64,000 nt of DNA from Fluviicola sp. (GCA_002733985.1 NVXP01000013.1:4310-68309); one strand, 5' to 3'. Counted from the stretch's first letter, positions 15,201 through 39,916 are shown. A program made the numbers and translations. Notes: generated by a model not told the origin, from the sequence alone.

Positions 15201-15938
15201 GGAAAAAATGTCATCCAAGTTATCTGGGGTTTTCATCCCTATATCCTCGGCACTTTTAAGCAAGTAAGTACTACGGAATTCCTGATCGAAGGACAACTGA
15301 AGATCTCTCACCTCTAGTATTTCCACTAACAAAAAGCTTAGGTGAGAACATAATTTCTCGCTCTTATTTGAACACGAACATTCAAGAAAAATGTGACCGT
15401 TCTTCTGTAGAACAATAAAATAAGTGGTATCACCATTTGGATTATAGATACTTCCAGAAAAATTATCTGGCAGAAATTCTCCACTTAAAACTCGCATCCT
15501 GTCCCAACCGTCATATCTTTTTTTAGCGGGCATTGACATTCGTTCAATCTCTGCATCATCCAGCTCCAAAATAGGTTGATTCTCGATAATTAACTTGTTG
15601 TCAATTCGACTTAGATTGATGTCGTTCGAACTGTTTCCAGTCTCAACTTCTTCAAAAGGAGTCGTTGCAAATCGTTTATCTGCGCGAACCAAGACATTCA
15701 CAATGTGTTTGCACGCCCCACCACTTTTGTAAGGGCAAGAACAAGCTGCTGTGGTGACCTGCACAAAATTAAACTCGATAAACACTTTGTACTTTATGGA
15801 GCCTTGAATCTCTGCGCTGATTGAGTCTCCTCCCATCTTGAAATTCAAGATTCTGGAATCCGAAAAACGGTCGCGCGTTCTCTCACTTGTGTTGTTCGTA
15901 ATAAAATCTTGAAAGGACTTAAATGCTAATGGAATCAT
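12261..15938 (-). CDS. SNF2-family helicase with two N-terminal SWIM-type zinc fingers
   Basis: SWIM-like CSCPYKSGGACKHIVNVL and CSCSNKSEKLCSHLSFLL. Helicase motifs LADDMGLGKT (I), ILDESQAIKN (II), SLKAGGTGLNLT (V), DPWWNPAVENQAIDRAHRIGQ (VI). Confidence 0.9.
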   Translation of the reverse strand: MIPLAFKSFQDFITNNTSERTRDRFSDSRILNFKMGGDSISAEIQGSIKYKVFIEFNFVQVTTAACSCPYKSGGACKHIVNVLVRADKRFATTPFEEVETGNSSNDINLSRIDNKLIIENQPILELDDAEIERMSMPAKKRYDGWDRMRVLSGEFLPDNFSGSIYNPNGDTTYFIVLQKNGHIFLECSCSNKSEKLCSHLSFLLVEILEVRDLQLSFDQEFRSTYLLKSAEDIGMKTPDNLDDIFSIKMDQSRMHIRPKINILNLNATSLQALKKELVPEFKFPKKTNDLKFEQLIVVSENQYSFQLDIKLMQAPLTKGGEIKSPVKAVKILEEMNGSLNLEILPFYLALLQQETNDSEQELSDKLQQISVLIKNPLKVPFYHHQHDKHYSTKISPKSLEQIEIQTVESSACIYVKQQNDYYVLSCSVKVDNSELESKRIKLVGSFFYWEGKTLNFIDNAAIIRVLNFFSENKHELFIHTSQFAHFQEEFLNKLEQSISVKYKYVKRAPARIVKKEALDTITEYMIYLSESDDYILITPVVSYGETEVAALSKRTLFVENPAGGMYSIERKEADEHRFIRAIEEQHASFADQNETDFYYLHKQEFLESGWFLDAFENWRQSGFTILGFNQIRDNRMNSHKMSIQTSVSSGIDWFEIHANVTVGDQKVGLKEIQKAVLNKTRYIKLGDGTLGVMPAEWVDKFGTYFRSGTIKDDFIKTHHTNFKLIDELFEQEVLSQEASFKLEVFREKLSDFQSIRSTEIPKKLNATLRDYQKEGLNWLNFLDEFGFGGCLADDMGLGKTIQMIAYLLQQQEKGKTDANLVIVPTSLLFNWQVELDKFAPHLKRCVVYGSNRGTKDIDFSKYDIVLTSYGTMLSDIEHLRTYYFNCIILDESQAIKNPNSKRYKAARLLEGRQRFVMTGTPIENNTFDLYAQLSFAMPGLFGSAKRFKDEYSTPIDKFQETKRAIELQQKIHPFVLRRTKSQVAKELPEKIELVLHCEMGTEQQRVYNAYKKEFQLYLNKQETESLNRNSLHVLQGLTKLRQICNSPALLSDEEYYGNESAKLTVLMEQITTLKDNHKILVFSQFVGMLDLVKEALEKEKIKYAYLTGKTKDREAAVNSFQNDDNIRVFLISLKAGGTGLNLTKAEYVFLIDPWWNPAVENQAIDRAHRIGQENKVVAVRLITPNTIEEKIIELQSKKKQLSQDLIHTDTTILKQLSKEDLMEMI

Positions 15939-23243: not shown

Positions 23244-24467
23244 ATGCTCTCTTTTCTTAAGGCTCCAATACATCCAAACATAGATTTCTATGGAACGACT
23301 AAGCTTCGGTTGACGTGGAACATCTATCTCTTGCTGTTAATTTCTCTCATCCCATTAATCATCATATCAGTATTAACGCGTTCAGTTTACGTCTTCTATT
23401 ACAGTGCCAGTTTACTTCTAATTCTCATCTCTTTGCTTATCATTCGGCGAACTGGAAACTACCGTGTTGTCTCAGCTTTCCTCTGCTGTACACTTTATTC
23501 GATGATTTCATTGTCAATGTTCAGTATCGATAGTTACATTCACTATTTGGAGCCATTTTGGGCATTAGTAATTGTTCTTTATGTGTACTTTATTCACGGG
23601 GAAAAGTGGGGTGCGGTAGCCATTATTGCTACCACCATCTCAACGAGCCTCTTTTTTGTGATCACGTTAAATTCAACAATTGGGAATCTCAATGAGATGA
23701 CATTCTTTCAATCCTTGTCCATGGGGTTCGAATTAAGTATTTGTCTTTCATTAATCGGATACATCCTACATCAGTTCATTTTCTTGAAGAATCATGCAGA
23801 ACTTGAACTGCGAATGATGAATACTGCTTTGCGCAGGGAAAAAGACATTGTCGAGAGTCGCGATAAAGAAAAGACCATTTTACTGCAAGAAATCCACCAT
23901 CGTGTGAAGAATAACCTTCAGATTGTGATGAGTTTGTTGCGCATGCAATCGACAAAAATTGCTTCTCCGGAAGCGAAAGAACATTTTAATGATGCGATCA
24001 ACCGAGTTTTGACAATGTCCTTGATTCATCAAAAATTATACGAGAGTGAAAACTTATCGGCAGTCGATCTTTCTGAATACATCGAATCCTTGGCTTCAGA
24101 TGTTTTACGTAGCAATCAGATTCCTCGGGTAATTGATAAATCCTTTTCGATTGAAGTTCCTGAAATTGGGATGAAAACGATCGTACCAATTGCATTAATC
24201 ATTACTGAGCTCATCTCGAATTCAGTAAAACACGCCTTTGACAAAACGGAGCATCCTAAAATTAAACTTTCGGTTAGACTTATTGAAGATTCCAATGAAC
24301 TCGAATTGAAATATTCTGACAATGGAATATGGAAAGAATCCGACAAAGACACCTTTGGAACAGAGCTTATTGAGGCACTCACCGAGCAATTGGAAGGGAG
24401 TTATAGTTTAGATCTATGTGTTCAAAATGGATCCCTTTACACTTTCCGATTTAAACAACTCGACTAA
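23244..24467 (+). CDS. Membrane sensor histidine kinase (HisKA_2/HWE-like), no adjacent response regulator
   Basis: About 6 N-terminal TM helices, H-box EIHHRVKNNLQIVMSLLRMQ, and N-box ELISNSVKHAF. Confidence 0.8.
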   Translation: MLSFLKAPIHPNIDFYGTTKLRLTWNIYLLLLISLIPLIIISVLTRSVYVFYYSASLLLILISLLIIRRTGNYRVVSAFLCCTLYSMISLSMFSIDSYIHYLEPFWALVIVLYVYFIHGEKWGAVAIIATTISTSLFFVITLNSTIGNLNEMTFFQSLSMGFELSICLSLIGYILHQFIFLKNHAELELRMMNTALRREKDIVESRDKEKTILLQEIHHRVKNNLQIVMSLLRMQSTKIASPEAKEHFNDAINRVLTMSLIHQKLYESENLSAVDLSEYIESLASDVLRSNQIPRVIDKSFSIEVPEIGMKTIVPIALIITELISNSVKHAFDKTEHPKIKLSVRLIEDSNELELKYSDNGIWKESDKDTFGTELIEALTEQLEGSYSLDLCVQNGSLYTFRFKQLD

Positions 24468-24813: not shown

Positions 24814-25170
24814 ATGAACGGACAAAACAATAGAAACCAACAAAATGTAAACTTACAAGGTTTCAATCAAAACCAGATCAATGAAAACCCTATGCCAGGA
24901 GCTATCTCTTGGAGAATCGAGGGAACATCAACAAGAAATGCAGGAGGACTAAGAATTCTTAGGTTTACAGACGGGTCACAAACAGTAAGGGTTCACACGC
25001 ATGATAATTTGAGTTATCCAACTGTACTAGATGATATACATGGAAATCGACTAAACGATTCAACTGAAAGATGGGATCCATACTTAGCGGATGCTGTTAA
25101 AAACTATTTAAGAATGGGAACAAGTGCACCTGTTACGCCTAGTGTGGCCGGGGCACCTACTAACTTCTGA
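24814..25170 (+). CDS. Hypothetical protein with a Q/N-rich N-terminus
   Basis: 118-aa ORF with no signal peptide and no recognisable motif. A strong hairpin follows it. Confidence 0.45.
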   Translation: MNGQNNRNQQNVNLQGFNQNQINENPMPGAISWRIEGTSTRNAGGLRILRFTDGSQTVRVHTHDNLSYPTVLDDIHGNRLNDSTERWDPYLADAVKNYLRMGTSAPVTPSVAGAPTNF

Positions 25171-25235: not shown

Positions 25236-25263
25236 TATGGGCAGTATTCAAATACTGCCCATA
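25236..25263. terminator. Bidirectional terminator-like hairpin between convergent genes
   Basis: Perfect 12-bp arms TATGGGCAGTAT / ATACTGCCCATA with loop TCAA. A second small hairpin AAACGAA-ctct-TTCGTTTT follows at 25263-25281. Confidence 0.65.
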
Positions 25264-25350: not shown

Positions 25351-28300
25351 TCAATTATCACTTTTACTCTCCTCAATTTCCATCACACGATTCATGTCTA
25401 CATCGTAGTACTGCGTGTTCATTAGTTTACCCATCATGTAATTGATGATAGTGATATCCAATAAATTCTCTTGGTACTTCTGTTGCTTTTCAAGGTCTGG
25501 AAGATTCGGGTTCATGCAAATTTCACCTAAATATTTCTTCTTCGCTAAATCACCTTCAAGCCATCGTCCGTTTCGTTTACCGAGCATATAATTACCCATT
25601 TTATTCAATTTCCCAAAGGGATCATAGAATTTCCAAAGTCTATCAGGGATACCATTTTTCATGTTTCCTTCCGATTGAATCGTTCCGTTGTCGTAAAAAT
25701 TATAGACGTAGCCATTCATTCGTCCTGTGCTGTCATTTTCTTCATCAATGGTCAAAAGCTGACGTGTTTCATAGTGATCAGTGTGTGCACAATCGTATTT
25801 TTCGAACTTCTCAATAATGTATGCGCTGTACAGTCGATTTCCGGCATCGTCGTAATCAGTCAAGATCCCTTTCGACTTGAACTTAATTGAATCATTTAAA
25901 ACAATTACTGAATCAAAGTAGTTCGCTTCGTAGAGAAAGTTACCGTTATATCCGTAGAACTTCCAAAGACCAACCTTTTGTTTATTCTTCAATTTTCCAT
26001 CACGAGCGATTGTATCATTCGGATAGTATTTTGTCATTTGGCACTCAATATCTCCTTTTGAGATCAAGCTTGTGCGACCGTAATATCTATCCTCAATTGA
26101 ATACGTATTGTACCCTTCTTTCGCCAAAAGTGCATCTAAACTCTGAGTTGAAGTGATATCATCCGCGTAGAAATCAATGGAATCTTCCCATTTGAATTGG
26201 TAACGAATACTTAAGGCGTTTTCCTCCCAGATTTTCTCTTCTATTGGCATCCCGTATTGGAACTTCACATAGTGATATTTGAACCCTAAGGTGTCGTATG
26301 ATTCATAATCTTCTATTGGTTCTCCATCGAGAAAGAATCCGCGTTTGGCTAATCTACCGTTTGTATGATATGACCTCGACTCACCATTCAACAATCCATG
26401 CTGTAAGTTAATGTCGTATAAAAGAATAGAATCTCGTTTTGGGAATGTCAGATATGTTCTCAAATAACCATCGAGATATCCATTTTTGAAAGTAGCTTCG
26501 GTGTGTGCTTCAGAATCACGTGAAATCATTCGTCCGTCCATCACACCATTTTTAAACTCACCAATCGTAAGATCTCGACCTAGCCAATCGTATTCAGCCG
26601 AAATTCCATCACGTTGCCCATTTTTAAACTGTATAACCTGCTGTAAATAACGCGTGCGATGCTTTGGGAAGGTGTCCAAATTAGAGTACGGTTCGAAATA
26701 ATAATCGTAATACCGTTTTGGTTCTTTGTCTTGATAATTATACAAGCGAAGTTCACCGTCTGCTTCACCTTTGTTGAAGTTGAGCGTGCTTACCACTTTC
26801 CCTCTTCGGCTGTAGGCTGTCCAAATACCATGCGGTTTACCATCCAAGAAATGCCCTTCAACTGACTTCACTCCAAGATTTGAACTGAATGCGGAATAGG
26901 TCATGTATTTATTGTAGTCGTACAGTAAGCTTGAAAAATATTGGACGAAATCATCTTGCACTTGTGCACTTGCGTTCATCACACCAACGTCGTTCGTCAA
27001 TGACTTCAACATGTGCCTTTTCTGTTTCCTCTTATGGGCGCGGTAAAACTTGCGGTATCCTCTAAAACCCGTTGAAACGAAAACTTGGACTTTGTTCGAT
27101 TTCAACTTTACTTTAGCCAGTCCGGAACTGTATTTATATTCAAACTTGCCTGTGTAAAGCTCTTCATTGTCGTAGAGATAAGTATCTGATGTTACATCGT
27201 AGATGTTATAGGCACTGTTAACACTTTGGTGTTGCATTGTATCCACCTCATCAAGATCCATTCTAACTCCAGACCAAGAACCTTTCAGTACGAGATCATT
27301 GTAACTCGACTCTTTTGTTCCTATCCATCCAGAAAAATCTTCTGTGAAGATCCTAACTTCTCTTGAATGTATATCCCCGAAGCAATTGTACTTCTCTGAA
27401 ACGTATTCATGCGAAATAGGATCGTATTCAATATTGGTCTGGATTGTCGTATCAGAAAAAGACCATGTTCTGGACAAAATGACTTTATTTGCTAGCTCTT
27501 TTGATGCTAAGGTATCCTGCTTATTATAGAAAAAACCTGTCGACTCTGTACCCAAATAATGTCCAATAAAGTAATTGTTCTTCTGGGCGAAAAGGCCATC
27601 AATCATCACATTCAAACTCTCCTCTGGTTCATCATTGGCATATTCAATGAACGCACCCAATGAATCATAAATCAGGATATCGTAGAGTAGTCCATCTCGA
27701 GCATACAAACTTCGGTAGTATTTATTCGAGTCTGGTTGGAAAACGATTACATCCAAAGGGTTTCCGTTGTCCCAAAAGAGTGTGTCCTCGCTGAGGAGTT
27801 CCCCATTTTTGAATTCATATCGAAAGAACAGCTGCCCGTTCATGTAATATTGTTCGTAGATACCATCGAATTTCATGCGCGCTCCGAGACTATCCATCAG
27901 GAACCAACGAGGGTATATTAGCCCAGAAACTGGATCATACTCTACCTCATCTTGGGAAGCTCTATCAAAGCGATAACCACTATTGAGCTCATCGTACTGG
28001 TTGTAAGATCTTGCATCTGTTAGATCAAAGGATTTCTCGTTCTCACCTTCTAATTCGAGTTCTTCCTTGAAGGATTCAAAATGAATTTCATAAAATCCTG
28101 TTGGAAAATCCGGCATTGATGCTTCGCGACAACTTATATCATACGGGATTGATTTTTTTCCTTCTAGGTAATAATATTCTCTTGGATCTTCCATTGAACC
28201 TCCTCTCAGTATTGGCTTTTTAGAAAGGAGCGTGTCATTGCGATTCGCAATTTGCAACTTGAGCGTCACTTGAGAATTGGTCATGTATTTCCATTCTCCC

Positions 28301-29142
28301 GAAGCTTCTCCCAATTTAAATTCTCCAACTATTTGTTGCCAATCATTGCGCCCATTGTATCTGTATGGCCCATCATTTAGTCCCTTTTCGAAGGTTGAAT
28401 AACCGGTTGAATAATAGTGGTAGATCGAACCACCTTTTCTCAGTTGTTTTCTGTCATCTCCGCGAATAGAATACCAAAGGTCATTTGGGTATTTAATTTC
28501 CCACTCCCCTTCTTTTAATCCATTGACAAAATTTCCTTTTTTGAGCGTGTCGCCTTTGAAATTGAGCCACACTGCATGGCCATCAATCGCGTTATTCTTT
28601 ATGGTGAAATACCCCGCAATTTGATAAGCACCTGGTTGGCACATTCCATTTTCGTCAACCAAACAAAAATCCTTAAAAAGCTGAACATATTTCCCATCTG
28701 GAATGGCTCCAAATGGAGGAAGAACATCTTTATCGTGATTGTAGCTGACTTCAATTAGTTCTCCTGGAGTTTTTCGAATTGTTTCAGTTGCGGATTTGCC
28801 ATATTTCCTTCCCTTCTTAAGTCGTTTCCAACGATGCTTGAGTTTTTTTTGGAGATCTTCTTTTCTCTTTTTTGTTTTGGCCGTTTGAAACTTCTCTCTA
28901 CTAAATAGAAAATCGCCTGTGAACAGGTTAAAATAATTGTTGTAATCAGCAAAAAATGCTTCATCTTCAACGACTTTCCAATAATCGCGGTGGATTTCAA
29001 CATCCTTTCGAAATGGATAGACATAGTATTGTTCGCCCTTATGCTGGATCGAATCTACTGACTGCGCATTGACGGAAAACAAACCTCCTATAAAGAAAAA
29101 GAGCACGATCCATTTTCTATTCTTGACCATTTGGTACTTCAT
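25351..29142 (-). CDS. Giant secreted MORN-variant (YwqK-like) repeat protein, paralogue 1
   Basis: Signal peptide WIVLFFFIGGLFSVNAQS. Many G-x-W-x-x-Y-x-NG type repeats (NGLKEGEWEIKYP, DGKPHGIWTAY, KNGIPDRLWKFYDPFGKL, GKRNGRWLEG). Long collinear similarity to the upstream ORF. ATG at 29142; the ORF-track start at 29160 is GTG. Confidence 0.75.
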   Translation of the reverse strand: MKYQMVKNRKWIVLFFFIGGLFSVNAQSVDSIQHKGEQYYVYPFRKDVEIHRDYWKVVEDEAFFADYNNYFNLFTGDFLFSREKFQTAKTKKRKEDLQKKLKHRWKRLKKGRKYGKSATETIRKTPGELIEVSYNHDKDVLPPFGAIPDGKYVQLFKDFCLVDENGMCQPGAYQIAGYFTIKNNAIDGHAVWLNFKGDTLKKGNFVNGLKEGEWEIKYPNDLWYSIRGDDRKQLRKGGSIYHYYSTGYSTFEKGLNDGPYRYNGRNDWQQIVGEFKLGEASGEWKYMTNSQVTLKLQIANRNDTLLSKKPILRGGSMEDPREYYYLEGKKSIPYDISCREASMPDFPTGFYEIHFESFKEELELEGENEKSFDLTDARSYNQYDELNSGYRFDRASQDEVEYDPVSGLIYPRWFLMDSLGARMKFDGIYEQYYMNGQLFFRYEFKNGELLSEDTLFWDNGNPLDVIVFQPDSNKYYRSLYARDGLLYDILIYDSLGAFIEYANDEPEESLNVMIDGLFAQKNNYFIGHYLGTESTGFFYNKQDTLASKELANKVILSRTWSFSDTTIQTNIEYDPISHEYVSEKYNCFGDIHSREVRIFTEDFSGWIGTKESSYNDLVLKGSWSGVRMDLDEVDTMQHQSVNSAYNIYDVTSDTYLYDNEELYTGKFEYKYSSGLAKVKLKSNKVQVFVSTGFRGYRKFYRAHKRKQKRHMLKSLTNDVGVMNASAQVQDDFVQYFSSLLYDYNKYMTYSAFSSNLGVKSVEGHFLDGKPHGIWTAYSRRGKVVSTLNFNKGEADGELRLYNYQDKEPKRYYDYYFEPYSNLDTFPKHRTRYLQQVIQFKNGQRDGISAEYDWLGRDLTIGEFKNGVMDGRMISRDSEAHTEATFKNGYLDGYLRTYLTFPKRDSILLYDINLQHGLLNGESRSYHTNGRLAKRGFFLDGEPIEDYESYDTLGFKYHYVKFQYGMPIEEKIWEENALSIRYQFKWEDSIDFYADDITSTQSLDALLAKEGYNTYSIEDRYYGRTSLISKGDIECQMTKYYPNDTIARDGKLKNKQKVGLWKFYGYNGNFLYEANYFDSVIVLNDSIKFKSKGILTDYDDAGNRLYSAYIIEKFEKYDCAHTDHYETRQLLTIDEENDSTGRMNGYVYNFYDNGTIQSEGNMKNGIPDRLWKFYDPFGKLNKMGNYMLGKRNGRWLEGDLAKKKYLGEICMNPNLPDLEKQQKYQENLLDITIINYMMGKLMNTQYYDVDMNRVMEIEESKSDN

Positions 29143-29160
29143 CCTCCTATTTTTTTTCAC

Positions 29161-32100
29161 TTAATCCTCTTCAAATTCTTCCGCTTCAATCACCTCTTCA
29201 TCTTCGTCAATAAATGTGTTCATATTGATGTCGTAGTATTGTGTATTGAGCGATTTTCCCAAATCGTAATTGGTGATTTTAATGTCGAGTAAATTTTCGC
29301 GGTATTTGATTTCCTCTTCCAAATCGGGAAGATTCGGATTCAAACAAATGTCACCTAAGTATTTTGTTTTAGAAAGGTCCCCAGAAAGCCAACGTCCATT
29401 GCGTTTTCCTAGAACGTACACGCCATATTGGTTTAATTTCCCATAAGGATCGTAATATTTCCAAACACCATCTGGCAATCCGTTTTTCATAACACCTTCG
29501 CTTTGCAGCGTTCCGTTGTCATAGAAGTTTTGGACAGACCCATTCATTCTACCGAGCGAGTCGTTTGTTTCCCAACGCGTATACAATTGACGAATTTCAT
29601 AGTGGTCAGTGTGCGAGCAGTCGTACTTTGATGACATCTCAATCACAAAGCTCTCATACAATGGATTTCCGTTGATGTCAAAATCCGTTAGAATACCTTT
29701 CGATTTAAATTTAATGGAATCGTTGATTTCAATGATTGAATCTTGATAATCCACTTCGTAGAGCAATTCTCCATTGTAGCTGTAATATTGCCAACAACCA
29801 ACTTTCCGCCCGTCAGTCAAATCGCCGTCTCTGGAAATCGTGTCATTTGGATAGTATTTAGTCATGTGATAGTTGATTCCATTTTTGTTCACTAGACTTT
29901 TTCTCCCATAATATGGTCGTTGGAAATAGTCTCCACCGAGACCCAAATTTGAAATAACCGATTCCAAGGATTGTGAAGTTGTAATATCTGATGGTTCGAA
30001 ATAAATTGAATCTTGCCAATCAAATAAATAGCGAACACTTAATTCATTTTCCTCCCAAATCTTCTCCTCGATCGGGAAAGAATATTGGAACTTCACATAG
30101 TGATATTTGAATCCCAGCGAATCGTATGCTTCATAATCTTCAATTGGTCGTCCATCTAAAAAGAACCCCCGTTTCGCTAATTTCCCATTTGTATGAAACG
30201 CTTTTGACTCGCCTTGCAATAAACCATCCTGAAAATTGAGCTTATAGAGAAGAATTGAATCTCCAGGTCGAAGTGTTAAATAGGTTTTGACATATCCATC
30301 CGCTTTTCCATACTTGTATGTTGCCTCTGTAGTTGCCAATTTATTACGTTCAATACTCAATCCATCCATGAAGCCATCTTCATAGTTCGATTCTTCGGTA
30401 ATCCCTCCATACCAAGAATAGCTAATTTGTTTTCCATGCGCTTTTCCATTCAAATAGTTGGCAACGCTTGCAACGTAGTGAGTGCGCTTTTGAGGAAATG
30501 AATCCCTGAGTGGGTGATCGTAATCATAGCCCATCCATGAGTATTCATTCTTCCCTACTGGGAGGGCATAATCGTACCAAATAATCTCTCCATTAACTTC
30601 ACCTTTTGAATAGCTAACTTCTAACATTTTCTCTCCAAACTGATCATATCCAATCCACAAGCCATTTGGCTTACCGTCCACCATGAATCCTTCAATATTG
30701 GACATTACTGCGTTTGCATCTTTGTCTTTCCGGTTCGCTTCATAATCCCCATAATAAGAATTATCGTTTGTCTGGAAGAAACCTCCAAGTGGGTCCGAAA
30801 AGAAATTACTGAAAATATACATTGAAAGATCCTTGTCTGTTTCCGACGCATCGATCAAATTCATGATTACGGGATATTTTGTTTTTCCTGTTTTGCGGTA
30901 ATGCGCCAAATCTTTGATTAATTTTTTCGCTGTGTATTTTGAGTCTGGAAGAGAAATCGTCAAATTTTTCTTGCTGAATTTCAACTTCTTTTTACCGAAA
31001 TTCAATTCCACAGGACCCGTATATGCTTGTCCGTTTTTACTGAGACTGTATTCGCTGGCTACATTGAATTTATTAGCTTCGCGAATGTGTCGAATGGGAA
31101 TTGAATCTGGTTCATAATATTCGTAAATCGTTCCGGAGCTCGTTATTTCAAGTTCAAGATCAGCCAAGCGAATGAACTTTTTACCTGTCCAGCTTTCGAA
31201 CATTTCAGAATAGTACTTCTCTTCATTCATCGTCTCAGAGCCGAGTACGCTGTATGCTTTTATGGAGAGACGTTTATCCTCTGGATAATACATCGACGAA
31301 TACAATTTTGTTGAATCATCTACAAACCAAGATCGGAACAAAACGGTCGAATCAACCATGGCTTCATTGTTCAAGGTGTCATACGCATTATAGAAATAGA
31401 AAGTCCCATAACCAGCACTCGTTGTCTTGAATCCATCAATGATAAATACCTCCTCTACTTCGTGATTTTTCTGAATTCGAATAAAATCTCCTAAGGAATC
31501 ATATGCTAATTCCATGTAAATTTTACCATCATAATCGTAAATTGATCTGAGGTACTGATTGGAATCTGGCACTTCGGTGATGACGTCATGAGCGTTTCCA
31601 TTGTCCCAAAAAACAGTGTCTTCTTTGATTAGAACTCCATTTTCGAAGACGTACTTATATGCCAGTTGACCATTCTCGTATCTCGATTCGTAGACGCCTG
31701 AGTACTTTGGTCTAGCCCCAATACTATCTAACAACAATCCCCTTGGGAGTAATTTCTCAGCATTTAGATCAAAATAGTGCGCGAAGTAATCATCGTAACC
31801 ATATTCATTTCCATAGTAAGAGTTACCATAAGACCTCTCATTGTAATAATCATCCTCGTAGAAATCTAAGTCATATGGCGCGCCTTCCAATTCTTCATCT
31901 AGCTCGAGGTTTTCTACTTTCTCGTAGGCAATTTCATACATCTGATACGGCAGTTCTGGCCGGTCATATTTAGCATAAAAATTAAACTGATCCCTGCTCG
32001 CTCCATAAAGCCCAGCCAACTCTTTTCGAAGCCATTGGGGATGGACGACCAATGTATCATTTTCTTCAAACGACAACTTTGTGGTAATCAATTCATTGTT

Positions 32101-33006
32101 TCGAATACGCTTTTCATTTTCCCCATAACCCCGGAACACTATATCACGTGTGATCCAAGTTCCTGAGGGCAAACCATTCTTGTAGTCACCTTCCTCTATT
32201 GGGTATGCCGAGTTATTAAATTTACGGTAATGTCCATCCTTGGCTCCATTTTTATAGGTGATGTATTCCGTCAGTGTGTCAATATCTGGATAACCTCTTT
32301 CGATGTATAAGTCGGCCTGTTTTTCTGTAATCACGTAATCCAAACTACGGCGCTCAAATTTCCATTCGCCTTCTTTAATTCCGTTTACGAACCAACCATG
32401 TTTTAAGGTATCGCCATAACGATCTACCCACGTCGCTTCACCTTCCAATAAATTGTTTTTCATGGTGAAGTAACCCGCTACGCGATCTGAAATCATTTCA
32501 CATTTACCTTTCCCATCAACTAAGCAAAACTCTTCGTAAAGCTGAACGTATTTCCCATCAGGAATCGGGTCGAGCATTGGAATTAAATCGTTGTTCTCTT
32601 GGAACCGCTGCTGCATGAGTGGGTATGGATTATTTCTAATGGCCTTCACAAACTTGCGTGAAGTCAAGTATTTCCCTTCCTTCCCACTAAAAAGATCTCT
32701 ACTGTACCCAGATTGGAATTGACGAATCTCCCGTTTTAGTTTTCTGAAATCTTTCCTTGACATCTCTTCTCCCAATTCTTCAAGCATCATTTCTCGGTAA
32801 AGATCGTAGGACAACTTATTGTTCAAACGTGACTCCTTTTGCGCCTTGTAATATTGTGAGTGAGTATTCGTTTCGACTTCAAAAGGGTACACGAAAAACT
32901 GGTCTCCATTTATTTCCAAGGTGTCAATCTCTTGAGCATAGCTAACAGAGACTAAACTTAAAAATAGGAGTGTGAATAGTGAAAAGAGTTGGTTAGATTT
33001 AGTCAT
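29161..33006 (-). CDS. Giant secreted MORN-variant (YwqK-like) repeat protein, paralogue 2
   Basis: Signal peptide MTKSNQLFSLFTLLFLSLVSVSYAQE starts at the ATG at 33006. Repeats include NGIKEGEWKF, DGKPNGLWIGY, KNGLPDGVWKYYDPYGKL and GKRNGRWLSG. The start overlaps the upstream lipoprotein stop by 8 nt. Confidence 0.75.
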   Translation of the reverse strand: MTKSNQLFSLFTLLFLSLVSVSYAQEIDTLEINGDQFFVYPFEVETNTHSQYYKAQKESRLNNKLSYDLYREMMLEELGEEMSRKDFRKLKREIRQFQSGYSRDLFSGKEGKYLTSRKFVKAIRNNPYPLMQQRFQENNDLIPMLDPIPDGKYVQLYEEFCLVDGKGKCEMISDRVAGYFTMKNNLLEGEATWVDRYGDTLKHGWFVNGIKEGEWKFERRSLDYVITEKQADLYIERGYPDIDTLTEYITYKNGAKDGHYRKFNNSAYPIEEGDYKNGLPSGTWITRDIVFRGYGENEKRIRNNELITTKLSFEENDTLVVHPQWLRKELAGLYGASRDQFNFYAKYDRPELPYQMYEIAYEKVENLELDEELEGAPYDLDFYEDDYYNERSYGNSYYGNEYGYDDYFAHYFDLNAEKLLPRGLLLDSIGARPKYSGVYESRYENGQLAYKYVFENGVLIKEDTVFWDNGNAHDVITEVPDSNQYLRSIYDYDGKIYMELAYDSLGDFIRIQKNHEVEEVFIIDGFKTTSAGYGTFYFYNAYDTLNNEAMVDSTVLFRSWFVDDSTKLYSSMYYPEDKRLSIKAYSVLGSETMNEEKYYSEMFESWTGKKFIRLADLELEITSSGTIYEYYEPDSIPIRHIREANKFNVASEYSLSKNGQAYTGPVELNFGKKKLKFSKKNLTISLPDSKYTAKKLIKDLAHYRKTGKTKYPVIMNLIDASETDKDLSMYIFSNFFSDPLGGFFQTNDNSYYGDYEANRKDKDANAVMSNIEGFMVDGKPNGLWIGYDQFGEKMLEVSYSKGEVNGEIIWYDYALPVGKNEYSWMGYDYDHPLRDSFPQKRTHYVASVANYLNGKAHGKQISYSWYGGITEESNYEDGFMDGLSIERNKLATTEATYKYGKADGYVKTYLTLRPGDSILLYKLNFQDGLLQGESKAFHTNGKLAKRGFFLDGRPIEDYEAYDSLGFKYHYVKFQYSFPIEEKIWEENELSVRYLFDWQDSIYFEPSDITTSQSLESVISNLGLGGDYFQRPYYGRKSLVNKNGINYHMTKYYPNDTISRDGDLTDGRKVGCWQYYSYNGELLYEVDYQDSIIEINDSIKFKSKGILTDFDINGNPLYESFVIEMSSKYDCSHTDHYEIRQLYTRWETNDSLGRMNGSVQNFYDNGTLQSEGVMKNGLPDGVWKYYDPYGKLNQYGVYVLGKRNGRWLSGDLSKTKYLGDICLNPNLPDLEEEIKYRENLLDIKITNYDLGKSLNTQYYDINMNTFIDEDEEVIEAEEFEED

Positions 33007-33946
33007 AGTAGGTGTAATCAAACGTTTCGATCTGAAAATTTTTATCATTGTCATTTGTTCTGGCACTAGTATGTGTAACTCGAGATGGCAAATGATTTTT
33101 CTCAAGTGTAAAATTCGAGTGTCGGCGCATCAGATAACGTTCCATGCTAAACGTTGAATCTATGAAACCTATACAGTCGCCTTGTTTGTTGTATTCAATG
33201 TTTCTTTTGTAATCAAATGGTTCGCGTTCGAATTGAATTTCCGTTGGGTTGTTGGTGTTTTTAGCGTAATCGATTGTCTTTACATCAAATTCATTCACAC
33301 GATTTACTACGTGATAATGTTTCGAAGGCCGTTTTGGTGTTCCATAAACAATAAAATCTTCACCCGTAGGCCCAAGAATAGAATCAACTGAAAGTGCTCC
33401 CCAATGCTTTTCATTTGGCAAGAAAAAGAGGTAGCTCCCATTGTTCGCGTTTGAATACGCCAAGAAATTCGTCGCCGTTTGTTCCAAATCATAGAGTTGG
33501 TAACCCGTTAAATCCTCATTTGATTCATTCATTTTACTCATCTTCACTTTTTGGAAACCGTGCACATCTCTAACGCCAAAATAATTAAAGGTAACATCGC
33601 TGACTTTCTGCCCTTCGTAGTATTCACAAATCTGAACACGTGTGATTTCACCATTCACATTAAATTCATAGTGCTTTTCTACTTTTATTGATGCAAAATC
33701 CTCGACTTTTCCATTCAGATTGTACACTTTTCTATGAATCGTTTTTATATTATTCTCTTTGATCAAGCTGTCATCAAACCAAACTGGAAATGACATATTA
33801 TCTTCTGATTCCGAAAAAAAATGCTGCATCTCAAAAACGAAATGATTGGATCGCTGTTCCCCTCTTTGGAACAGCTGTCTTTTCTCTTCTGAGCACGCTG
33901 TAAAAAGAATAGGAATAATTAAGAGGATGAGAATACGACCTTTCAT
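32999..33946 (-). CDS. Hypothetical lipoprotein, first gene of the MORN-protein operon
   Basis: Lipobox IPILFTAC. 315 aa with no recognised domain. Translationally coupled to the next gene (TATGACTAA overlap). Confidence 0.6.
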   Translation of the reverse strand: MKGRILILLIIPILFTACSEEKRQLFQRGEQRSNHFVFEMQHFFSESEDNMSFPVWFDDSLIKENNIKTIHRKVYNLNGKVEDFASIKVEKHYEFNVNGEITRVQICEYYEGQKVSDVTFNYFGVRDVHGFQKVKMSKMNESNEDLTGYQLYDLEQTATNFLAYSNANNGSYLFFLPNEKHWGALSVDSILGPTGEDFIVYGTPKRPSKHYHVVNRVNEFDVKTIDYAKNTNNPTEIQFEREPFDYKRNIEYNKQGDCIGFIDSTFSMERYLMRRHSNFTLEKNHLPSRVTHTSARTNDNDKNFQIETFDYTYYD

Positions 33947-34024
33947 AGAGGTTGTAAGATAAGAAGATTATGAATCACGCTATTCCTATTATACATTTTT
34001 GTTTCTCAGCCAGTTAATTTAACG

Positions 34025-34032
34025 TAATTTTG
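34025..34032 (+). promoter_or_regulatory. Candidate Bacteroidota -7 promoter box upstream of ygiQ
   Basis: TAATTTTG matches the TAnnTTTG consensus, 17 nt upstream of the ATG at 34049. Confidence 0.3.
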
Positions 34033-34048
34033 TAGCAATTATTGACTT

Positions 34049-35968
34049 ATGCGCCCAATTACGGACTGGTTACCAATTACCCGCGACGAACTTAATAAAC
34101 GTGGCATTGAAGAAGTAGATGTAATACTCATCTCTGGCGATGCCTATGTGGATCACCCTGCATTCGGTACTGCAGTAATTGGTCGAATAATCGAAGACGA
34201 AGGCTTTACGATTGCCATCATTCCTCAACCCAACTGGAAAGATGATTTACGCGATTTCAAAAAATTCGGGAAACCAAAGTACTTTTTTGGTGTAACAGCT
34301 GGTTGCATGGATTCCATGGTCAATCACTACACAGCAAATTTGCGCTTACGGTCTACTGACGCCTATACTCCGGGAGGCGAAGCAGGATTTAGACCTGACT
34401 ATTCAACAACGACATATTCGAAGATCCTCAAGAAGCTCTATCCTGATGTTCCCGTTTTAATTGGAGGAATTGAAGCTTCATTACGACGAGTAACACATTA
34501 TGATTATTGGTCAAACAAACTGATGCCATCGATATTGGTGGACTCACAAGCAGACATATTGGTTTACGGAATGGGCGACCAGCCGCTTCGTGAATTACTT
34601 CGTTTATTGAAAAAGGGCGTTTCCTTCGACAACTTAAAAACCTTAAAGCAGGTCGCTTTTCTACAGCCAAAGTCGGAAGAACTTCCGAAAAACAAGCAAT
34701 GGAAAACCGTCGAGATGGCGAGTCACGAAGTCTGTTTGGAAGATAAAATCAAATACGCTTCGAATTTTAAAATTGTCGAGGTTGAGTCGAATAAGTGGGC
34801 TGCAAATCGCATTACTCAGGAAGTTGGTGATCAGGTTTTGGTAATCAACCCTCCGTATAAAACGATGGAAGAAAAGGAAATTGATCAATCATTCGATCTT
34901 CCTTACACGCGATTACCTCATCCGAAATACAGAAAACGAGGTGCAATTCCAGCTTACGATATGATCAAGTTCTCGATCAACATGCATCGAGGTTGTTTTG
35001 GAGGCTGTAGTTTTTGTACCATTTCTGCTCATCAAGGAAAATTCATTGCTTCGCGAAGTGAAACTTCCATTATGAAGGAATTGGATAAAGTTACAGAACA
35101 CCCTGAATTCAAAGGATACATCTCAGATATCGGTGGACCATCGGCGAACATGTACAAGATGAAAGGCAAGGTCGAAGAGATCTGCGCACGTTGTACAAGT
35201 CCTAGTTGTATTCACCCTGTGATTTGTTCGAATTTGGATACTTCGCATAAATCGATGACTGAGCTCTACAAAAAGATCGATGCTCATCCAGGAGTTAAAA
35301 AAGCCTTTATTGGATCAGGAATACGATACGATTTATTGGTGGATGAATTCAACAAAAATAACGAAGACGGAAACCACGACGAGTATATCGAACAATTGGT
35401 AACTCGACACATTAGCGGAAGATTGAAAGTTGCGCCAGAACACACTTCTGATGCAACATTGCGCGTGATGCGAAAGCCATCGTTCAAATATTTCCACAAG
35501 TTCAAGGAAAAATACGACGCTATTTCAGAAAAGCACAACCTTAATCAACCATTGATTCCTTACTTTATTTCCTCTCACCCAGGATGTGCGGATGAAGACA
35601 TGGCAAATTTGGCTGTGGAAACGAAAGATTTGGGATTCAAACTGGAACAAGTTCAAGATTTCACGCCAACCCCAATGACAGTTGCTACGGTGATTTATTA
35701 TAGTGGGGTTCATCCTTATACTCTGAAACCTTACGATACTGTCAAGAAGAAAGAGGACAAACTGAATCAGCGACGTTTCTTCTTCTGGTACAAACGAGAA
35801 AATCACGATCACATTCGACGTACGCTGAAAAAAGCGAATCGTCCCGACATGATTGAGAAATTGATTGGGGATAAACCCAGTCAAACTTCAAGTTCACGTT
35901 CAAAACCAGCTCCAAAATGGCTGGAAGACCGACGAAAAAATGACCGTTCTCGAAAGAAACGCAGATAA
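34049..35968 (+). CDS. ygiQ: YgiQ-family (UPF0313) radical SAM protein
   Basis: CxxxCxxC cluster motif RGCFGGCSFCTI. N-terminal LISGDAYVDHPAFG is typical of YgiQ. Basic C-terminal tail. Confidence 0.88.
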   Translation: MRPITDWLPITRDELNKRGIEEVDVILISGDAYVDHPAFGTAVIGRIIEDEGFTIAIIPQPNWKDDLRDFKKFGKPKYFFGVTAGCMDSMVNHYTANLRLRSTDAYTPGGEAGFRPDYSTTTYSKILKKLYPDVPVLIGGIEASLRRVTHYDYWSNKLMPSILVDSQADILVYGMGDQPLRELLRLLKKGVSFDNLKTLKQVAFLQPKSEELPKNKQWKTVEMASHEVCLEDKIKYASNFKIVEVESNKWAANRITQEVGDQVLVINPPYKTMEEKEIDQSFDLPYTRLPHPKYRKRGAIPAYDMIKFSINMHRGCFGGCSFCTISAHQGKFIASRSETSIMKELDKVTEHPEFKGYISDIGGPSANMYKMKGKVEEICARCTSPSCIHPVICSNLDTSHKSMTELYKKIDAHPGVKKAFIGSGIRYDLLVDEFNKNNEDGNHDEYIEQLVTRHISGRLKVAPEHTSDATLRVMRKPSFKYFHKFKEKYDAISEKHNLNQPLIPYFISSHPGCADEDMANLAVETKDLGFKLEQVQDFTPTPMTVATVIYYSGVHPYTLKPYDTVKKKEDKLNQRRFFFWYKRENHDHIRRTLKKANRPDMIEKLIGDKPSQTSSSRSKPAPKWLEDRRKNDRSRKKRR

Positions 35969-36057: not shown

Positions 36058-37038
36058 ATGAATAAAAGTAAAATGAAAAAATTAATCTCAGTTTTCACCC
36101 TATCATTGGTCTTGTTTTCATCTCAGGCGCAGAATTTAGTCCCCAATCCGAGCTTTGAAAACTATGCTAATACATATTGCGGTATCCAATTTCCATCAGT
36201 GTTCAATACAATAATGTACAATTGGATTAGTCCAACAGCAGCATCTCCACAGGTGTATTTCACAAACATCGAAGATAGCTGTTACAACTATCAACCTTTC
36301 AGTCAATATACCGGGCCGATTGGAATTAAAGGCAATCAAATACCTAGAACTGGTGACGTAATGTTAGGACTGCGTACCCTTACAATTCCAAGCTTTAATC
36401 AAAGAAATTATGTGCAAGTTCCCTTATCGACTCCAATGACCATTGGCAGTCAATATGTTATTGAATTTTATGCTTCGCTTGGTGATTCGATGGAGTCCGC
36501 TTCAAATAATTTGGGTGCACTTCTATCAACGGTGGCTCCTTTTTCCAATAACGATCAAGTACTGAATAGTACGCCTCAAATTAACTCTAATTCAATTGTT
36601 GACAACGTGACCGACTGGGTATTAATTTCAGATACGATAGTCGCACAAGAAGCCTACGCATTTATTACTATCGGTAATTTTTTCGATGATAACTCAACTA
36701 CTACTGCACCAAATCCTTCAGCTTCTGGCGGAGGCGGAACGTATGGAGCATCTTACTTCATTGATGATGTGCGTGTTGAAGAGGTTAGCGGAGTTGGAAT
36801 AACAGGTATTGAACAAGAGGAGCTTTCGATATATCCAACGTTTGTTACTGATCAACTTAACATCGAACTATCAACTGGTTCTTTGGTTGAAATACTGGAT
36901 ACCGAAGGTAAGATTATCTACTCTAAGTTTTTGGAAAGGGGGTTGAATACCCTCTATGTATCTAATTTTTCCAAAGGTGTATATGTCGTTTCTGTACAAA
37001 ATGGAACAAATAGAATAACCCGCAGAATTGTAAAATAG
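36058..37038 (+). CDS. Secreted protein with a T9SS type A C-terminal sorting domain
   Basis: Signal peptide, an NLVPNPSFE N-terminal module, and C-terminal LSIYPTFVTDQLNIEL...GVYVVSVQNG...RIVK. Confidence 0.7.
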   Translation: MNKSKMKKLISVFTLSLVLFSSQAQNLVPNPSFENYANTYCGIQFPSVFNTIMYNWISPTAASPQVYFTNIEDSCYNYQPFSQYTGPIGIKGNQIPRTGDVMLGLRTLTIPSFNQRNYVQVPLSTPMTIGSQYVIEFYASLGDSMESASNNLGALLSTVAPFSNNDQVLNSTPQINSNSIVDNVTDWVLISDTIVAQEAYAFITIGNFFDDNSTTTAPNPSASGGGGTYGASYFIDDVRVEEVSGVGITGIEQEELSIYPTFVTDQLNIELSTGSLVEILDTEGKIIYSKFLERGLNTLYVSNFSKGVYVVSVQNGTNRITRRIVK

Positions 37039-37717: not shown

Positions 37718-39916
37718 ATGAAAAACGAACAAAACATCGATCATACAGAATTTGACACATTCGAGGCGCCTACGAACTTGTGGGATCGCATAGAAAAAGG
37801 ACTGGACGATAAAAAATCAAAACGAAGAGGTATTATTTGGTGGAAAATTGCTGCTGGAATTGCACTTATTGGTGGACTTGGATACGGGATGATTTCTCTT
37901 TTATCGAATAACAGCATCGTAAAAGACAATTGGAAAGCAGAACTCAAGTTACCCGTAACCGAGGGCGACACAAGCAAAGTTGACACAAAAGACACAGTAG
38001 ATCAAAAGAAAGAATATTCATTTCCTACTATCCAACCCTTAGCTCTTGATTCAATAGCTACACCTGAAACTCCTCAGGTCAATACAGCATTGCCTTCTTG
38101 GATGACTTCACCAACTAAGACTAAGCCAAGACTTGGTTATCTAACTGCAACTAACCCATTTGGTTCTGGTGGAAGCGGGGACGGAAGTGGGGGCGGAACA
38201 GATTCAGGAACAGGAACAGGTTTGGCAACTACGACTTGGACTGCATCACCAAACATAGTCACTTACAGCTTCAATTCTCCTGCACCAACTTCTAATGGCT
38301 CTATGAATACGGGACCCCAGTCAGGTCTTTACGGCGGACCTGTGAACGTTCCAACTAATGGAGTTCTCGACGGCGTTTATATTTCGGAGCACATTCCAAC
38401 AAAACGAATGATTCCGTATGAAACACTAGGAGACGCTGATCGAAAGAAAAACTCAAATGAATTGGGACTTGGGACTGATTTACGCTCACTATCTAGTTAT
38501 GCATCCATTCAGGAAAATGCTTTCAAACCAACCTCAAAAGACCCACTTTCGACTTTTAGCATTGACGTTGATGGCGCATCATACAGTGATGTTCGTGGTA
38601 TGATTAACCGCAACGAACTTCCAAATCCAAATGCAGTGAGGCTGGAAGAGTTCATCAATTACTTCCCGTATGATTATCCTGAACCAACTAGCGAACACCC
38701 TTTTTCTGTAAACACCGAATTCGCAGAGTGTCCATGGAACCCAACGCATCAATTATTAAAAATTGGTATCAAAGGAGAATCGATTGAAAAGACTCAGTTA
38801 CCAACCAATAATTTAGTGTTCCTCCTAGATGTTTCTGGGTCGATGAACAATCCTGAAAAATTGGTACTCTTGAAAAAAGGCTTCCGATTACTCGTGAATG
38901 AATTGCGTGAAGAAGACCGCGTAGCAATCGTTGTTTATGCTGGTGCTGCTGGACTCGTTTTACCACCAACATCAGGAGCAAACAAAGACCAAATCTTGGA
39001 TGCATTGAACAAATTGTCAGCAGGTGGAAGCACAGCGGGTGGTCAAGGAATCAATTTAGCCTATGCGACTGCAGAAGATTACTTCGATCCAAACGGAAAC
39101 AACCGCATCATTTTAGCCACAGACGGTGATTTCAATGTTGGGGTTTCTGGCAACGACGCATTGGTGAAATTGATTGAAGAAAAACGCAAATCAGGAGTAT
39201 TCCTGACGGTTCTTGGGTTCGGTCACGACAATTTTCAATCGGATAAAATGGAAAAATTGGCCAACAATGGAAATGGGAATTTCTCCTTTATCGACAATAT
39301 TCTAGAAGCCAAGAAAGTACTCGTTACAGAAATGGGGGCTACCCTCAAAACGATTGCCAAGGACGTGAAAATTCAAGTGGAATTCAATCCAAATTATGTC
39401 AGTAGTTACCGACTTCTGGGGTATGAAAATCGCATGTTAGAGCACAAAGATTTTGCCAACGACACGGTGGATGCTGGAGAATTGGGTGCAGGACATACTG
39501 TTACCGCGGTTTACGAACTTATTCCACCTGGTGCGGCAGATGCAGACAATCCAAACGATGATGGAACAGACCTGAAGTATTCTAAAGTTGAAATGAAATC
39601 CTACGGGCTATATGCTGCTGAATTAGCGACGGTGAAATTTCGCTACAAAGAACCTGATGGAACCAACAGTAAATTGATCGAACAGATCATTCTGAATTCA
39701 CCTGAAATGAAAGCATCACCGGACTTCGAATTTATTCAAGCCGTGATTGAATTTGGCTTAATCCTAAGAGGATCAAGTTATGCAGGAAGTGCTAATTTCG
39801 ATTCTATTTTGAAACGCGCAAACGAGGCAATTGGTGATGACCCGTTCGGTTACCGCCGTGAGTTTTTAGTCTTGGTTGAAAAAGCCAAACTGCTTTCTGA
39901 CCCAATGTTAGAATAA
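37718..39916 (+). CDS. Single-pass membrane protein with periplasmic von Willebrand factor A domain (YfbK-like); putative anti-sigma partner
   Basis: Short cytoplasmic N-terminus, TM helix (WWKIAAGIALIGGLGYGMISLL), Gly/Ser/Thr linker, and MIDAS motif VFLLDVSGSMN. Starts 11 nt after the ECF sigma gene. Confidence 0.8.
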   Translation: MKNEQNIDHTEFDTFEAPTNLWDRIEKGLDDKKSKRRGIIWWKIAAGIALIGGLGYGMISLLSNNSIVKDNWKAELKLPVTEGDTSKVDTKDTVDQKKEYSFPTIQPLALDSIATPETPQVNTALPSWMTSPTKTKPRLGYLTATNPFGSGGSGDGSGGGTDSGTGTGLATTTWTASPNIVTYSFNSPAPTSNGSMNTGPQSGLYGGPVNVPTNGVLDGVYISEHIPTKRMIPYETLGDADRKKNSNELGLGTDLRSLSSYASIQENAFKPTSKDPLSTFSIDVDGASYSDVRGMINRNELPNPNAVRLEEFINYFPYDYPEPTSEHPFSVNTEFAECPWNPTHQLLKIGIKGESIEKTQLPTNNLVFLLDVSGSMNNPEKLVLLKKGFRLLVNELREEDRVAIVVYAGAAGLVLPPTSGANKDQILDALNKLSAGGSTAGGQGINLAYATAEDYFDPNGNNRIILATDGDFNVGVSGNDALVKLIEEKRKSGVFLTVLGFGHDNFQSDKMEKLANNGNGNFSFIDNILEAKKVLVTEMGATLKTIAKDVKIQVEFNPNYVSSYRLLGYENRMLEHKDFANDTVDAGELGAGHTVTAVYELIPPGAADADNPNDDGTDLKYSKVEMKSYGLYAAELATVKFRYKEPDGTNSKLIEQIILNSPEMKASPDFEFIQAVIEFGLILRGSSYAGSANFDSILKRANEAIGDDPFGYRREFLVLVEKAKLLSDPMLE

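Follow-up and report, generated by a model that had tools for sequence, protein, structure and literature searches.

Giant MORN_2-type repeat proteins encoded behind a lipoprotein gene: a candidate envelope operon of the Crocinitomicaceae

Do a lipoprotein and two very large exported proteins encoded in tandem constitute one system, and what might such a system do? This question is raised by an 8.6-kb locus of Fluviicola sp. (positions 25351-33946 of the 64,000-nucleotide stretch NVXP01000013.1:4310-68309 of assembly GCA_002733985.1, hereafter called the window), in which three co-directional open reading frames (ORFs) on the minus strand code for a predicted lipoprotein and two proteins of ~1270 residues that we called giant-2 and giant-1, in their order in the operon. 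The reading that we tentatively favour is that of a lineage-specific envelope operon of the Crocinitomicaceae, in which a periplasm-facing lipoprotein would tether or partner beta-ribbon scaffolds, the latter associating by way of a conserved C-terminal module of ~220 residues.

The lipoprotein gene and its linkage to the giants

The three ORFs are present where the initial annotation had placed them, and both of the tight junctions that it had described were found. The ATG of giant-2 sits inside the end of the lipoprotein gene (TAT GAC TAA), which in the other frame reads ATG ACT AAA (TATGACTAA); stop and start thus overlap by 8 nt. At the second junction, the TAA of giant-2 is immediately followed by the GTG of giant-1, with alternative ATGs 18 and 30 nt further on, i.e. 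a gap of 0-30 nt. The two giants are collinear paralogues that align end to end, with 540 identical positions out of 1312 (41%) and ~70% identity over the last 350 residues, and every near-identical block that had been quoted for them was recovered.

A word-indexed search with giant-2 retrieved 179 homologues. Where source names are given, they are metagenome-assembled genomes of Crocinitomicaceae, Fluviicola or Flavobacteriales, and all 120 homologues among the matches listed have lengths of 1099-1353 residues. On the basis of these searches, the family appears to be essentially specific to the Crocinitomicaceae. We scanned one genome per GTDB species, which yielded 152 giant loci; the counts come from the best 80 of these 152. 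A homologue of the lipoprotein is encoded directly upstream on the same strand in 56 of the 80 loci, 11 are cut by a contig end and 13 have no lipoprotein gene despite >7 kb of upstream sequence. The linkage to the lipoprotein claimed for the window therefore extends to 56 of 69 informative loci in other genomes.

The usual gene order is ygiQ(-), lipoprotein, giant(s), pepB, pdxA, yceD, rpmF, plsX and fabH; the locus of P0116 is an ordinary linked one. The neighbours of the giants code for the ygiQ-like radical SAM protein, an M17 peptidase, PdxA and a histidine kinase, and this block recurs in >100 loci. The GC content of the operon, 0.38-0.40, is like that of the remaining window. The operon is vertically inherited within a housekeeping block. 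The fixed ygiQ-fabH block, the matching GC content and a C-terminal module that is the most conserved part of the giants speak for a conserved function rather than for arms-race genes.

We analysed the geometry of 67 lipoprotein-giant junctions. The two genes overlap in 49 of them, by exactly 8 nt in 27 cases and by 14 nt in eight; the others have gaps of 0-30 nt (11 junctions) or 31-124 nt (seven junctions), and none is longer than 124 nt. Since the overlap is maintained even between lipoproteins that are 28% identical, it provides the strongest argument that co-expression of the lipoprotein and the giant has probably been under selection.

The lipoproteins form a small, sharply bounded family. 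Each of the 77 matches of the homologue search has E<1e-56, distant relatives are absent, and the lipoprotein has no match in Pfam. Its AlphaFold model is confident and all-beta (predicted local distance difference test, pLDDT, 86; predicted template modelling score, pTM, 0.82). The best global fold match, with a template modelling (TM) score of 0.43-0.50, a probability of 1.00 and 8-10% sequence identity, is PDB 4GHB (BACUNI_01323 of Bacteroides uniformis), a 'porin-like' structural genomics target that, like the lipoprotein, is all-beta and from the Bacteroidota. Ranked by Foldseek E-value, Rhs proteins come first (E 8e-6), and there are also weaker hits to the LolA superfamily. The hypothesis that the lipoprotein is a fragment of a giant was rejected, as a comparison of the profiles of both families shows no homology.

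Copy number varies between loci. In most linked loci a single giant gene follows the lipoprotein gene; there are two in L003, L004, L006, L023, L046, L057, L058 and the window, and three or four in L039, L073, L078, L079 and L081. Among the latter, three Fluviicola genomes have the lipoprotein gene followed by three or four giant genes in tandem (L073, 8016-20736; L079 and L081, 7962-19741). Copy number spans 0 to 4 across the family when giant-less loci are included. Giants also occur on their own, in 13 Crocinitomicaceae loci. Those of a first group (X) are flanked by genes for a TrkA-like protein and a short-chain dehydrogenase, and those of a second group (Y) have genes for unrelated lipoproteins downstream; four genomes have one giant of each group. 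In two loci (L049, 11753-15268; L053, 11750-13174), the group Y giant gene has an overlapping stop/start with the gene for an unrelated 304-residue lipoprotein, followed by those for paralogous lipoproteins of 424 and 433 residues. We considered that the lipoproteins downstream of group Y giants might be kin of the window lipoprotein and rejected it, as only the signal peptides align.

In a neighbour-joining tree, giant-2 of the window falls in the clade of first-position giants, and group X branches as sister to the first L023 giant. Giant-1 groups with the second-position giants of L003, L004, L006 and L023, with group Y as their sister. These placements indicate that the duplication of the giants is old and that their tandem arrangement is one of several outcomes. 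Duplication had been taken as a hallmark of the system; this view has to be abandoned, with a copy number of 1-4 at linked loci and the old paralogue pair at separate loci in some lineages.

To view the linkage from the other side, we scanned metagenomes with the lipoprotein profile, which gave 61 loci, to which two further loci were added. In these 63 loci, the gene following that of the lipoprotein codes for a giant in 20 cases, is pepB in 22 and pdxA or another gene in nine, and the contig ends there in 12. Most of the giant-less lipoproteins make up one clade, sister to the clade that contains those of L023 and the window, and its position matches that of groups X and Y among the giants. 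The mirroring of the two trees suggests that the giants of one lineage moved elsewhere while the lipoprotein stayed put.

Several results weigh against the tethering of giants by the lipoprotein. No giant gene follows the lipoprotein gene in 31 of 51 informative metagenome loci, and the conserved residues of the lipoprotein are intact there, which indicates that it is still under selection at giant-less loci. Conversely, there are the 13 loci with stand-alone giants, and neither of two loci coding for distant giant relatives (L146 and L147, described below) has a lipoprotein gene. Two metagenome contigs that are 99.7% identical (L089, 1-2211; L090, 361-6102) differ by a 3523-bp deletion that removes nearly the whole giant and fuses its signal peptide to its acidic tail, with an 8-bp overlap at the junction; thus, some cells at least would be able to do without the giant, provided that the difference is no assembly error. 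The fold of the lipoprotein provides no functional lead either, as 4GHB, itself of unknown function, gives no mechanism. The physical interaction between lipoprotein and giants is an inference.

Most of these results would fit an alternative in which lipoprotein and giants are neighbours without a functional link, the former fixed in the ygiQ-pdxA block and the latter occupying or leaving the slot behind it. The lack of homology between the two profiles goes in the same direction. However, gene overlaps retained down to 28% lipoprotein identity are hard to explain without selected co-expression, and the matching topologies of the lipoprotein and giant trees in the separated lineage fit relocation within genomes that keep both. 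We therefore regard functional independence as rather unlikely. The lipoprotein had initially been described as dedicated to the giants: the linkage is indeed strong, with 56 of 69 loci and 49 of 67 overlaps, but it is not obligate, since each partner occurs without the other.

Repeats, predicted fold and conserved C-terminal module of the giants

In Pfam searches, the giants match MORN_2 (PF07661) only, with 44.4 bits for giant-2 and 38.0 bits for giant-1, above the gathering threshold of 29.6. Most of the signal of giant-2 stems from its last 237 residues (38.5 bits, three stretches). MORN_2 proteins are common in bacteria, and we know of none with a demonstrated function. The initial annotation had mentioned dozens of MORN repeats. 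By sequence there is only a handful of canonical ones, as strict regular expressions for MORN_2 units gave 4-5 matches, and we therefore counted the repeats from the predicted structure, in which the claim is borne out.

Pfam searches at E<=10 with six segments of giant-2 detected, besides MORN_2, only a sub-threshold match to DUF7399 and no RHS_repeat. The DUF7399-like region (residues 26-105, ~32692-32931; 21.6 bits for a cut-off of 27) coincides with the region of the conserved N-terminal motif and may correspond to an N-terminal module shared by large MORN proteins of Bacteroidota. Sequence searches of the PDB, both with single sequences and with profiles, gave nothing meaningful, the PADLOC defence models had no matches, and nothing scored above cut-off in NCBIfam, where the LIC20035 adhesin model (NF033566) reached 32.2 and 23.8 bits for a cut-off of 250. 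No enzyme or defence domain was thus found in the giants with Pfam, NCBIfam and PADLOC; as had been surmised, the system matches no characterised domain in these searches.

Several giant homologues bear the JGI label 'antitoxin component YwqK', and the initial annotation had regarded proteins with such repeats as typically small antitoxins, from which large secreted versions would depart. This premise does not hold: in Fusobacterium, 87% of 697 MORN2 genes code for proteins with signal peptides (PMC4222103). Secretion is thus the norm for the MORN2 repeat, and the main argument for the strangeness of the giants falls.

YwqK of Bacillus subtilis (COG2849, YwqJK module) is a small cytoplasmic protein whose gene lies beside an LXG toxin gene. 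It shares a MORN_2-type repeat with the giants, but the latter are exported, have ~1270 residues and are devoid of a toxin neighbour. The label therefore results from a repeat-level transfer and is clearly wrong for the giants. The label and the repeat are also what would favour giants acting as periplasmic, YwqK-type immunity proteins (antitoxins) against incoming toxins. However, no toxin gene is adjacent in >140 loci, where the flanking genes are ygiQ, pepB, pdxA and those of fatty-acid synthesis, and the giants are 5-10 times the size of YwqK-type proteins in addition to being exported. Vertical inheritance and a conserved C-terminus are the opposite of what characterises polymorphic immunity genes, and the PADLOC search was empty. 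We consider an immunity function to be highly improbable.

The giants also differ from the MORN2 proteins of Fusobacterium (PF07661; Manson McGuire et al. 2014, PMC4222103). Both have the same repeat and form proteins with several repeats, and those of Fusobacterium mostly have a Sec signal, vary in length and are sometimes encoded as tandem paralogues. However, Fusobacterium has undergone a massive expansion of these genes, to 115-250 domains per genome, and its copies are hypervariable and located near mobile elements and adhesin genes, whereas the giants are present in 1-4 collinear copies of ~1270 residues in a housekeeping block, are inherited vertically and possess an N-terminal motif, the 220-residue C-terminal module and usually a coupled lipoprotein. 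Secreted MORN2 proteins were thus already known as a large uncharacterised class (PMC4222103). What is new is a ~1270-residue subfamily with a fixed architecture, a conserved C-terminal module and a coupled orphan lipoprotein, vertically inherited in one bacterial family.

We modelled residues 64-1263 of giant-2 with AlphaFold, using an alignment of 116 homologues. The model is confident (pLDDT 83.5, pTM 0.64) and contains 65 beta-strands, which represent 45% of the residues and form ~30 hairpins, in addition to three helical inserts and one low-complexity linker rich in Tyr, Asp and Glu. The best local structural superposition was obtained with MORN1, whose crystal structures gave TM scores of 0.41-0.55 normalised to the target. 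As modelled, the giants thus have tandem beta-hairpins, which would form the extended sheet of MORN-like proteins.

Ranked by E-value, the Foldseek hits of the model are headed by the YD shell of teneurin-2 (E 2.4e-11), the Rhs cores of type VI secretion systems (T6SS) and TcB/TcC, which raises the possibility that the giants are distant Rhs/YD-repeat, teneurin-like shells enclosing their own chain, with the lipoprotein possibly completing the shell as in TcB/TcC. The first-ranked Rhs hits of the lipoprotein, a size of ~1250 residues that equals that of Rhs cores, a pTM rather high for a floppy ribbon and the presence of a few Y-D-x-x-G motifs are in line with this idea. Such shells (teneurin-2, 6FB3; T6SS Rhs, 8QJA and 7Q97; Tc toxin, 6H6E) are likewise made of ~1000-1300 residues forming almost only beta-hairpins. 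However, the TM scores of 0.05-0.09 and root-mean-square deviations of ~40 Å between the model and the Rhs, teneurin and Tc shells indicate that the likeness is one of local hairpins only. In addition, RHS_repeat was not detected in the six giant-2 segments, the motif of the DPxGL autoprotease (DP.G[LIV]) is absent from both giants, the C-terminus is the most conserved region rather than a variable toxin, and there are no T6SS, VgrG or Tc genes nearby. A shell is accordingly very unlikely.

The most conserved region of the giants, both within the family and across a wider superfamily, is the C-terminal module of ~220 residues. It contains a motif placed by the model at the tip of a hairpin, between two long predicted strands, and of which Cys1130, His1132, Asp1134, Tyr1136, Glu1137, Arg1139 and Gln1140 (giant-2 numbering) are invariant across 116 sequences. 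In the family this tip has the form K-Y-D-C-x-H-x-D-H-Y-E-x-R-Q, and a further invariant Cys is found ~90 residues on. The motif was one of two peptide patterns that retrieved the giant family.

We searched 1.84 billion representatives exhaustively with the profile of a trimmed five-sequence alignment and detected 535 proteins at E<1e-10, of which 109 had E<1e-30; about 40 are full-length representatives of the Crocinitomicaceae type. Many further proteins of 980-1330 residues match best at profile positions ~886-1108, which correspond to residues ~1035-1263 of giant-2. Four of them (P0257, P0268, P0281 and P0321) retain a signal peptide ending in Q, the C-terminal module, an N-terminal motif of the approximate form (V/I)xGxxYYVYP(F/I/L/V) and the (I/L)PDGKY(V/I)Q sequence that starts the hairpin array. 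Distant members thus keep the module and match best over it, which makes it the defining conserved element. Two of their loci come from genomes with higher GC contents, 0.49 (L146, 4411-11702) and 0.53 (L147, 1331-4435), compared with 0.38-0.42. The distant relatives encoded there have 1034-1233 residues and share the signal peptide, C-terminal module and N-terminal motif, and one of the two loci codes for a tandem pair.

MORN arrays are established modules of protein-protein interaction and dimerisation, in which pairing involves the C-terminal repeats and, in two cases, a Cys/Asp zinc site on a hairpin (PMC7725318). This suggests a concrete candidate role for the invariant hairpin tip of the giants, for whose C-x-H-x-D-H sequence the C-terminal dimerisation of MORN1, sometimes with such a zinc site, may serve as a precedent by analogy. 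As modelled, the giants resemble eukaryotic MORN1 (Toxoplasma, Plasmodium and Trypanosoma; PDB 6T6Q, 6T69, 6T4D and 6T4R; PMC7725318) and the junctophilins (7RW4 and 7RXE) in their elongated beta-hairpin sheets. However, eukaryotic MORN proteins are cytoplasmic and comprise 8-15 repeats of the Pfam MORN type (PF02493), whereas the giants are predicted to be periplasmic, with ~30 hairpins of the MORN_2 variant, helical inserts and an acidic tail.

Export, location and possible role

All three proteins have exactly one 19-residue window with a Kyte-Doolittle value >1.6, at the N-terminus. As described initially, the giants thus have Sec signals and no transmembrane anchor. Their signal peptides are predicted to end in SYA/QE (giant-2) and VNA/QS (giant-1), where the slash marks the cleavage site, and an [ASG]Q cleavage end was found in 67 of the 67 giant homologues examined. 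These sites agree with the Q-rule of Bacteroidetes, which describes signal peptidase I substrates that stay in the periplasm or pass through it (PMC5837995). The absence of a tail for the type IX secretion system (T9SS) also stood up to scrutiny: neither giant matches a T9SS C-terminal sorting domain (PF18962, PF13585 or TIGR04183) in Pfam and NCBIfam, and such domains are detectable in this genome, as the product of a neighbouring ORF (36058-37038) matches PF18962. Both giants have the acidic C-terminal tail that had been noticed; Asp and Glu make up a median of nine of the last 25 residues in 87 giants, and the acidic tail is missing in the stand-alone copies of group Y.

The third protein has the lipobox of bacterial lipoproteins and is predicted to be lipidated; its lipobox Cys is kept in 105 of 107 homologues. 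In surface lipoproteins, the export signal directly follows Cys+1 and consists of a polar residue and then at least two acidic ones, with a net negative charge (PMC5080379). The window lipoprotein starts with C-S-E-E-K-R, in which S-E-E is similar to two such signals, SDDFE and SDDDD, but the charges add up to a net 0. In the family as a whole, the net charge of residues +2 to +6 centres on 0, and at least two acidic residues are found at positions +2 to +5 in 27 of 105 proteins. With no conserved net negative charge at +2 to +6, the family has no conserved export signal.

The Q-rule sites of the giants, the lack of a T9SS domain and the lack of a conserved lipoprotein export signal together point to giants located in the periplasm and to a membrane-bound lipoprotein that faces it, and make a cell-surface location of the system unlikely. 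The proposal of an envelope system of uncharacterised function thus stands in that its components are exported and linked to a lipoprotein, but its cell-surface variant is unlikely, as a signal for outer-membrane translocation is missing from the giants and a conserved export signal from the lipoproteins.

These data also bear on the idea that the giants are surface or released adhesins, similar to the Fusobacterium MORN2 or the Leptospira LIC20035 proteins, with the lipoprotein as a surface anchor or export helper. They do combine a signal peptide with MORN_2 repeats as in the fusobacterial class, there is the weak NCBIfam match to LIC20035 (32 and 24 bits), and the start of the window lipoprotein, C-S-E-E, looks like an export signal. 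However, the LIC20035 match, which lies in the C-terminal module, is far below the 250-bit cut-off, so that the giants are not members of this family. No route by which they could cross the outer membrane is known: they are neither lipoproteins nor autotransporters and lack the T9SS domain although the genome uses the T9SS. The acidic residues at +2 and +3 of the lipoprotein are followed by K-R, resulting in a net charge of 0, and are not conserved in the family. Lastly, the giants are low-copy and vertically inherited, unlike the expanded and variable Fusobacterium genes. An adhesin function is therefore unlikely.

The envelope operon that we tentatively favour would work as follows. The giants would be exported by the Sec machinery, cleaved by signal peptidase I before the invariant Gln and folded into long arrays of ~30 beta-hairpins of the MORN_2 type, forming MORN1-like sheets with three short helical inserts between them. 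Translational coupling would supply the lipoprotein and the first giant together, and the lipoprotein would tether or partner one to four giants. The C-terminal module, with its invariant Cys/His/Asp hairpin tip, might join giants to each other or to a conserved partner. The outcome would be a structural or binding scaffold in the periplasm, rather than an enzyme, a toxin or an immunity protein. Nothing points to an unprecedented mechanism.

A more specific version of this scaffold is a Crocinitomicaceae-specific periplasmic skeleton, which the lipoprotein and the giants would build. Lining the periplasm or extending across it, they would influence cell shape, envelope spacing or gliding, as a bacterial counterpart of the scaffolds formed by MORN1 and junctophilins at membrane junctions. 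We hold this version to be doubtful. A periplasmic scaffold, if it exists, would add a new structural element to the envelope of Bacteroidota. Otherwise, an annotation is corrected and a C-terminal module is defined that is common to a wider set of large exported proteins, the 109 representatives detected at the most stringent threshold. The family offers a clean test case, with its low copy number, vertical inheritance and fixed architecture (signal peptide, N-terminal motif, ~30 hairpins and conserved C-terminal module), a candidate partner lipoprotein and natural variants with 0, 1, 2, 3 or 4 copies.

Features of the operon and the surrounding window

The coordinates of the features of the operon and its borders are collected in Table 1.

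Table 1. Features of the lipoprotein-giant operon and its borders (positions counted from the first nucleotide of the window)
Feature	Position	Strand	Description
ygiQ-like radical SAM gene	34049-35968	+	Radical_SAM_N, DUF3362; divergent upstream boundary of the operon
Intergenic region between the ygiQ-like and lipoprotein genes	33947..34048	-	102 bp, divergent; presumed operon promoter
Lipoprotein gene	32999..33946	-	315 residues; orphan family, all-beta as modelled, only beside ygiQ in Crocinitomicaceae
Lipoprotein signal peptide and lipobox	33893..33946	-	Predicted, MKGRILILLIIPILFTA/C; LFTA/C, Cys18
Stop/start overlap, lipoprotein/giant-2	32999..33006	-	8 nt, ATGACTAA
Giant-2	29161..33006	-	1281 residues from the ATG in the overlap with the lipoprotein gene; first-position paralogue; beta-hairpin-repeat protein of the MORN_2 type, predicted to be secreted via signal peptidase I
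Giant-2 signal peptide	32935..33006	-	Residues 1-24, predicted cleavage SYA/Q; Gln25 invariant
Giant-2 conserved C-terminal module	29218..29904	-	Residues ~1035-1263; part shared with the wider superfamily
Hairpin-tip motif of giant-2	29587..29628	-	K-Y-D-C-S-H-T-D-H-Y-E-I-R-Q, residues 1127-1140
Giant-2 acidic C-terminal tail	29164..29217	-	TFIDEDEEVIEAEEFEED
Giant-1	25351..29160	-	1269 residues from the GTG; second-position paralogue; alternative ATGs at 29142 and 29130
Giant-1 conserved C-terminal module	25390..26076	-	Residues ~1029-1257; ~70% identity to giant-2
Inverted repeat	25238..25263	-	Perfect, 12 bp, ATGGGCAGTATT tg AATACTGCCCAT; ~90 nt past the giant-1 stop; possible terminator

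The putative promoter region contains one sigma-70-like match, at 34017-33988; in the promoter and terminator scan of the operon, the match counts were not above those of shuffled sequence. The inverted repeat past giant-1 has no T-run and was not called by the terminator scan. It is preceded by a small hairpin, AAACGAA agag TTCGTTT.

Convergent with giant-1, between the operon and a histidine kinase gene, lies an ORF (24814-25170, plus strand) for a 118-residue protein with a Gln/Asn-rich N-terminus and no match in Pfam. The histidine kinase gene (23244-24467, plus strand), which codes for a membrane protein of the HisKA_2 type, is located between giant-1 and pepB and breaks the usual order of giant, pepB and pdxA; L003 and L004 have the same insertion. 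Beyond it are the M17 aminopeptidase gene and then pdxA, both on the minus strand.

No tRNA gene was found by a scan of the 64-kb window. On the minus strand, an ORF at 12261-15938 codes for an SNF2-family helicase of 1225 residues with an N-terminal SWIM zinc finger. On the other side of the operon, past ygiQ, the plus-strand ORF at 36058-37038 codes for a T9SS cargo protein with a Por_Secre_tail domain (PF18962), and that at 37718-39916, also on the plus strand, for a vWA/YfbK-type protein.

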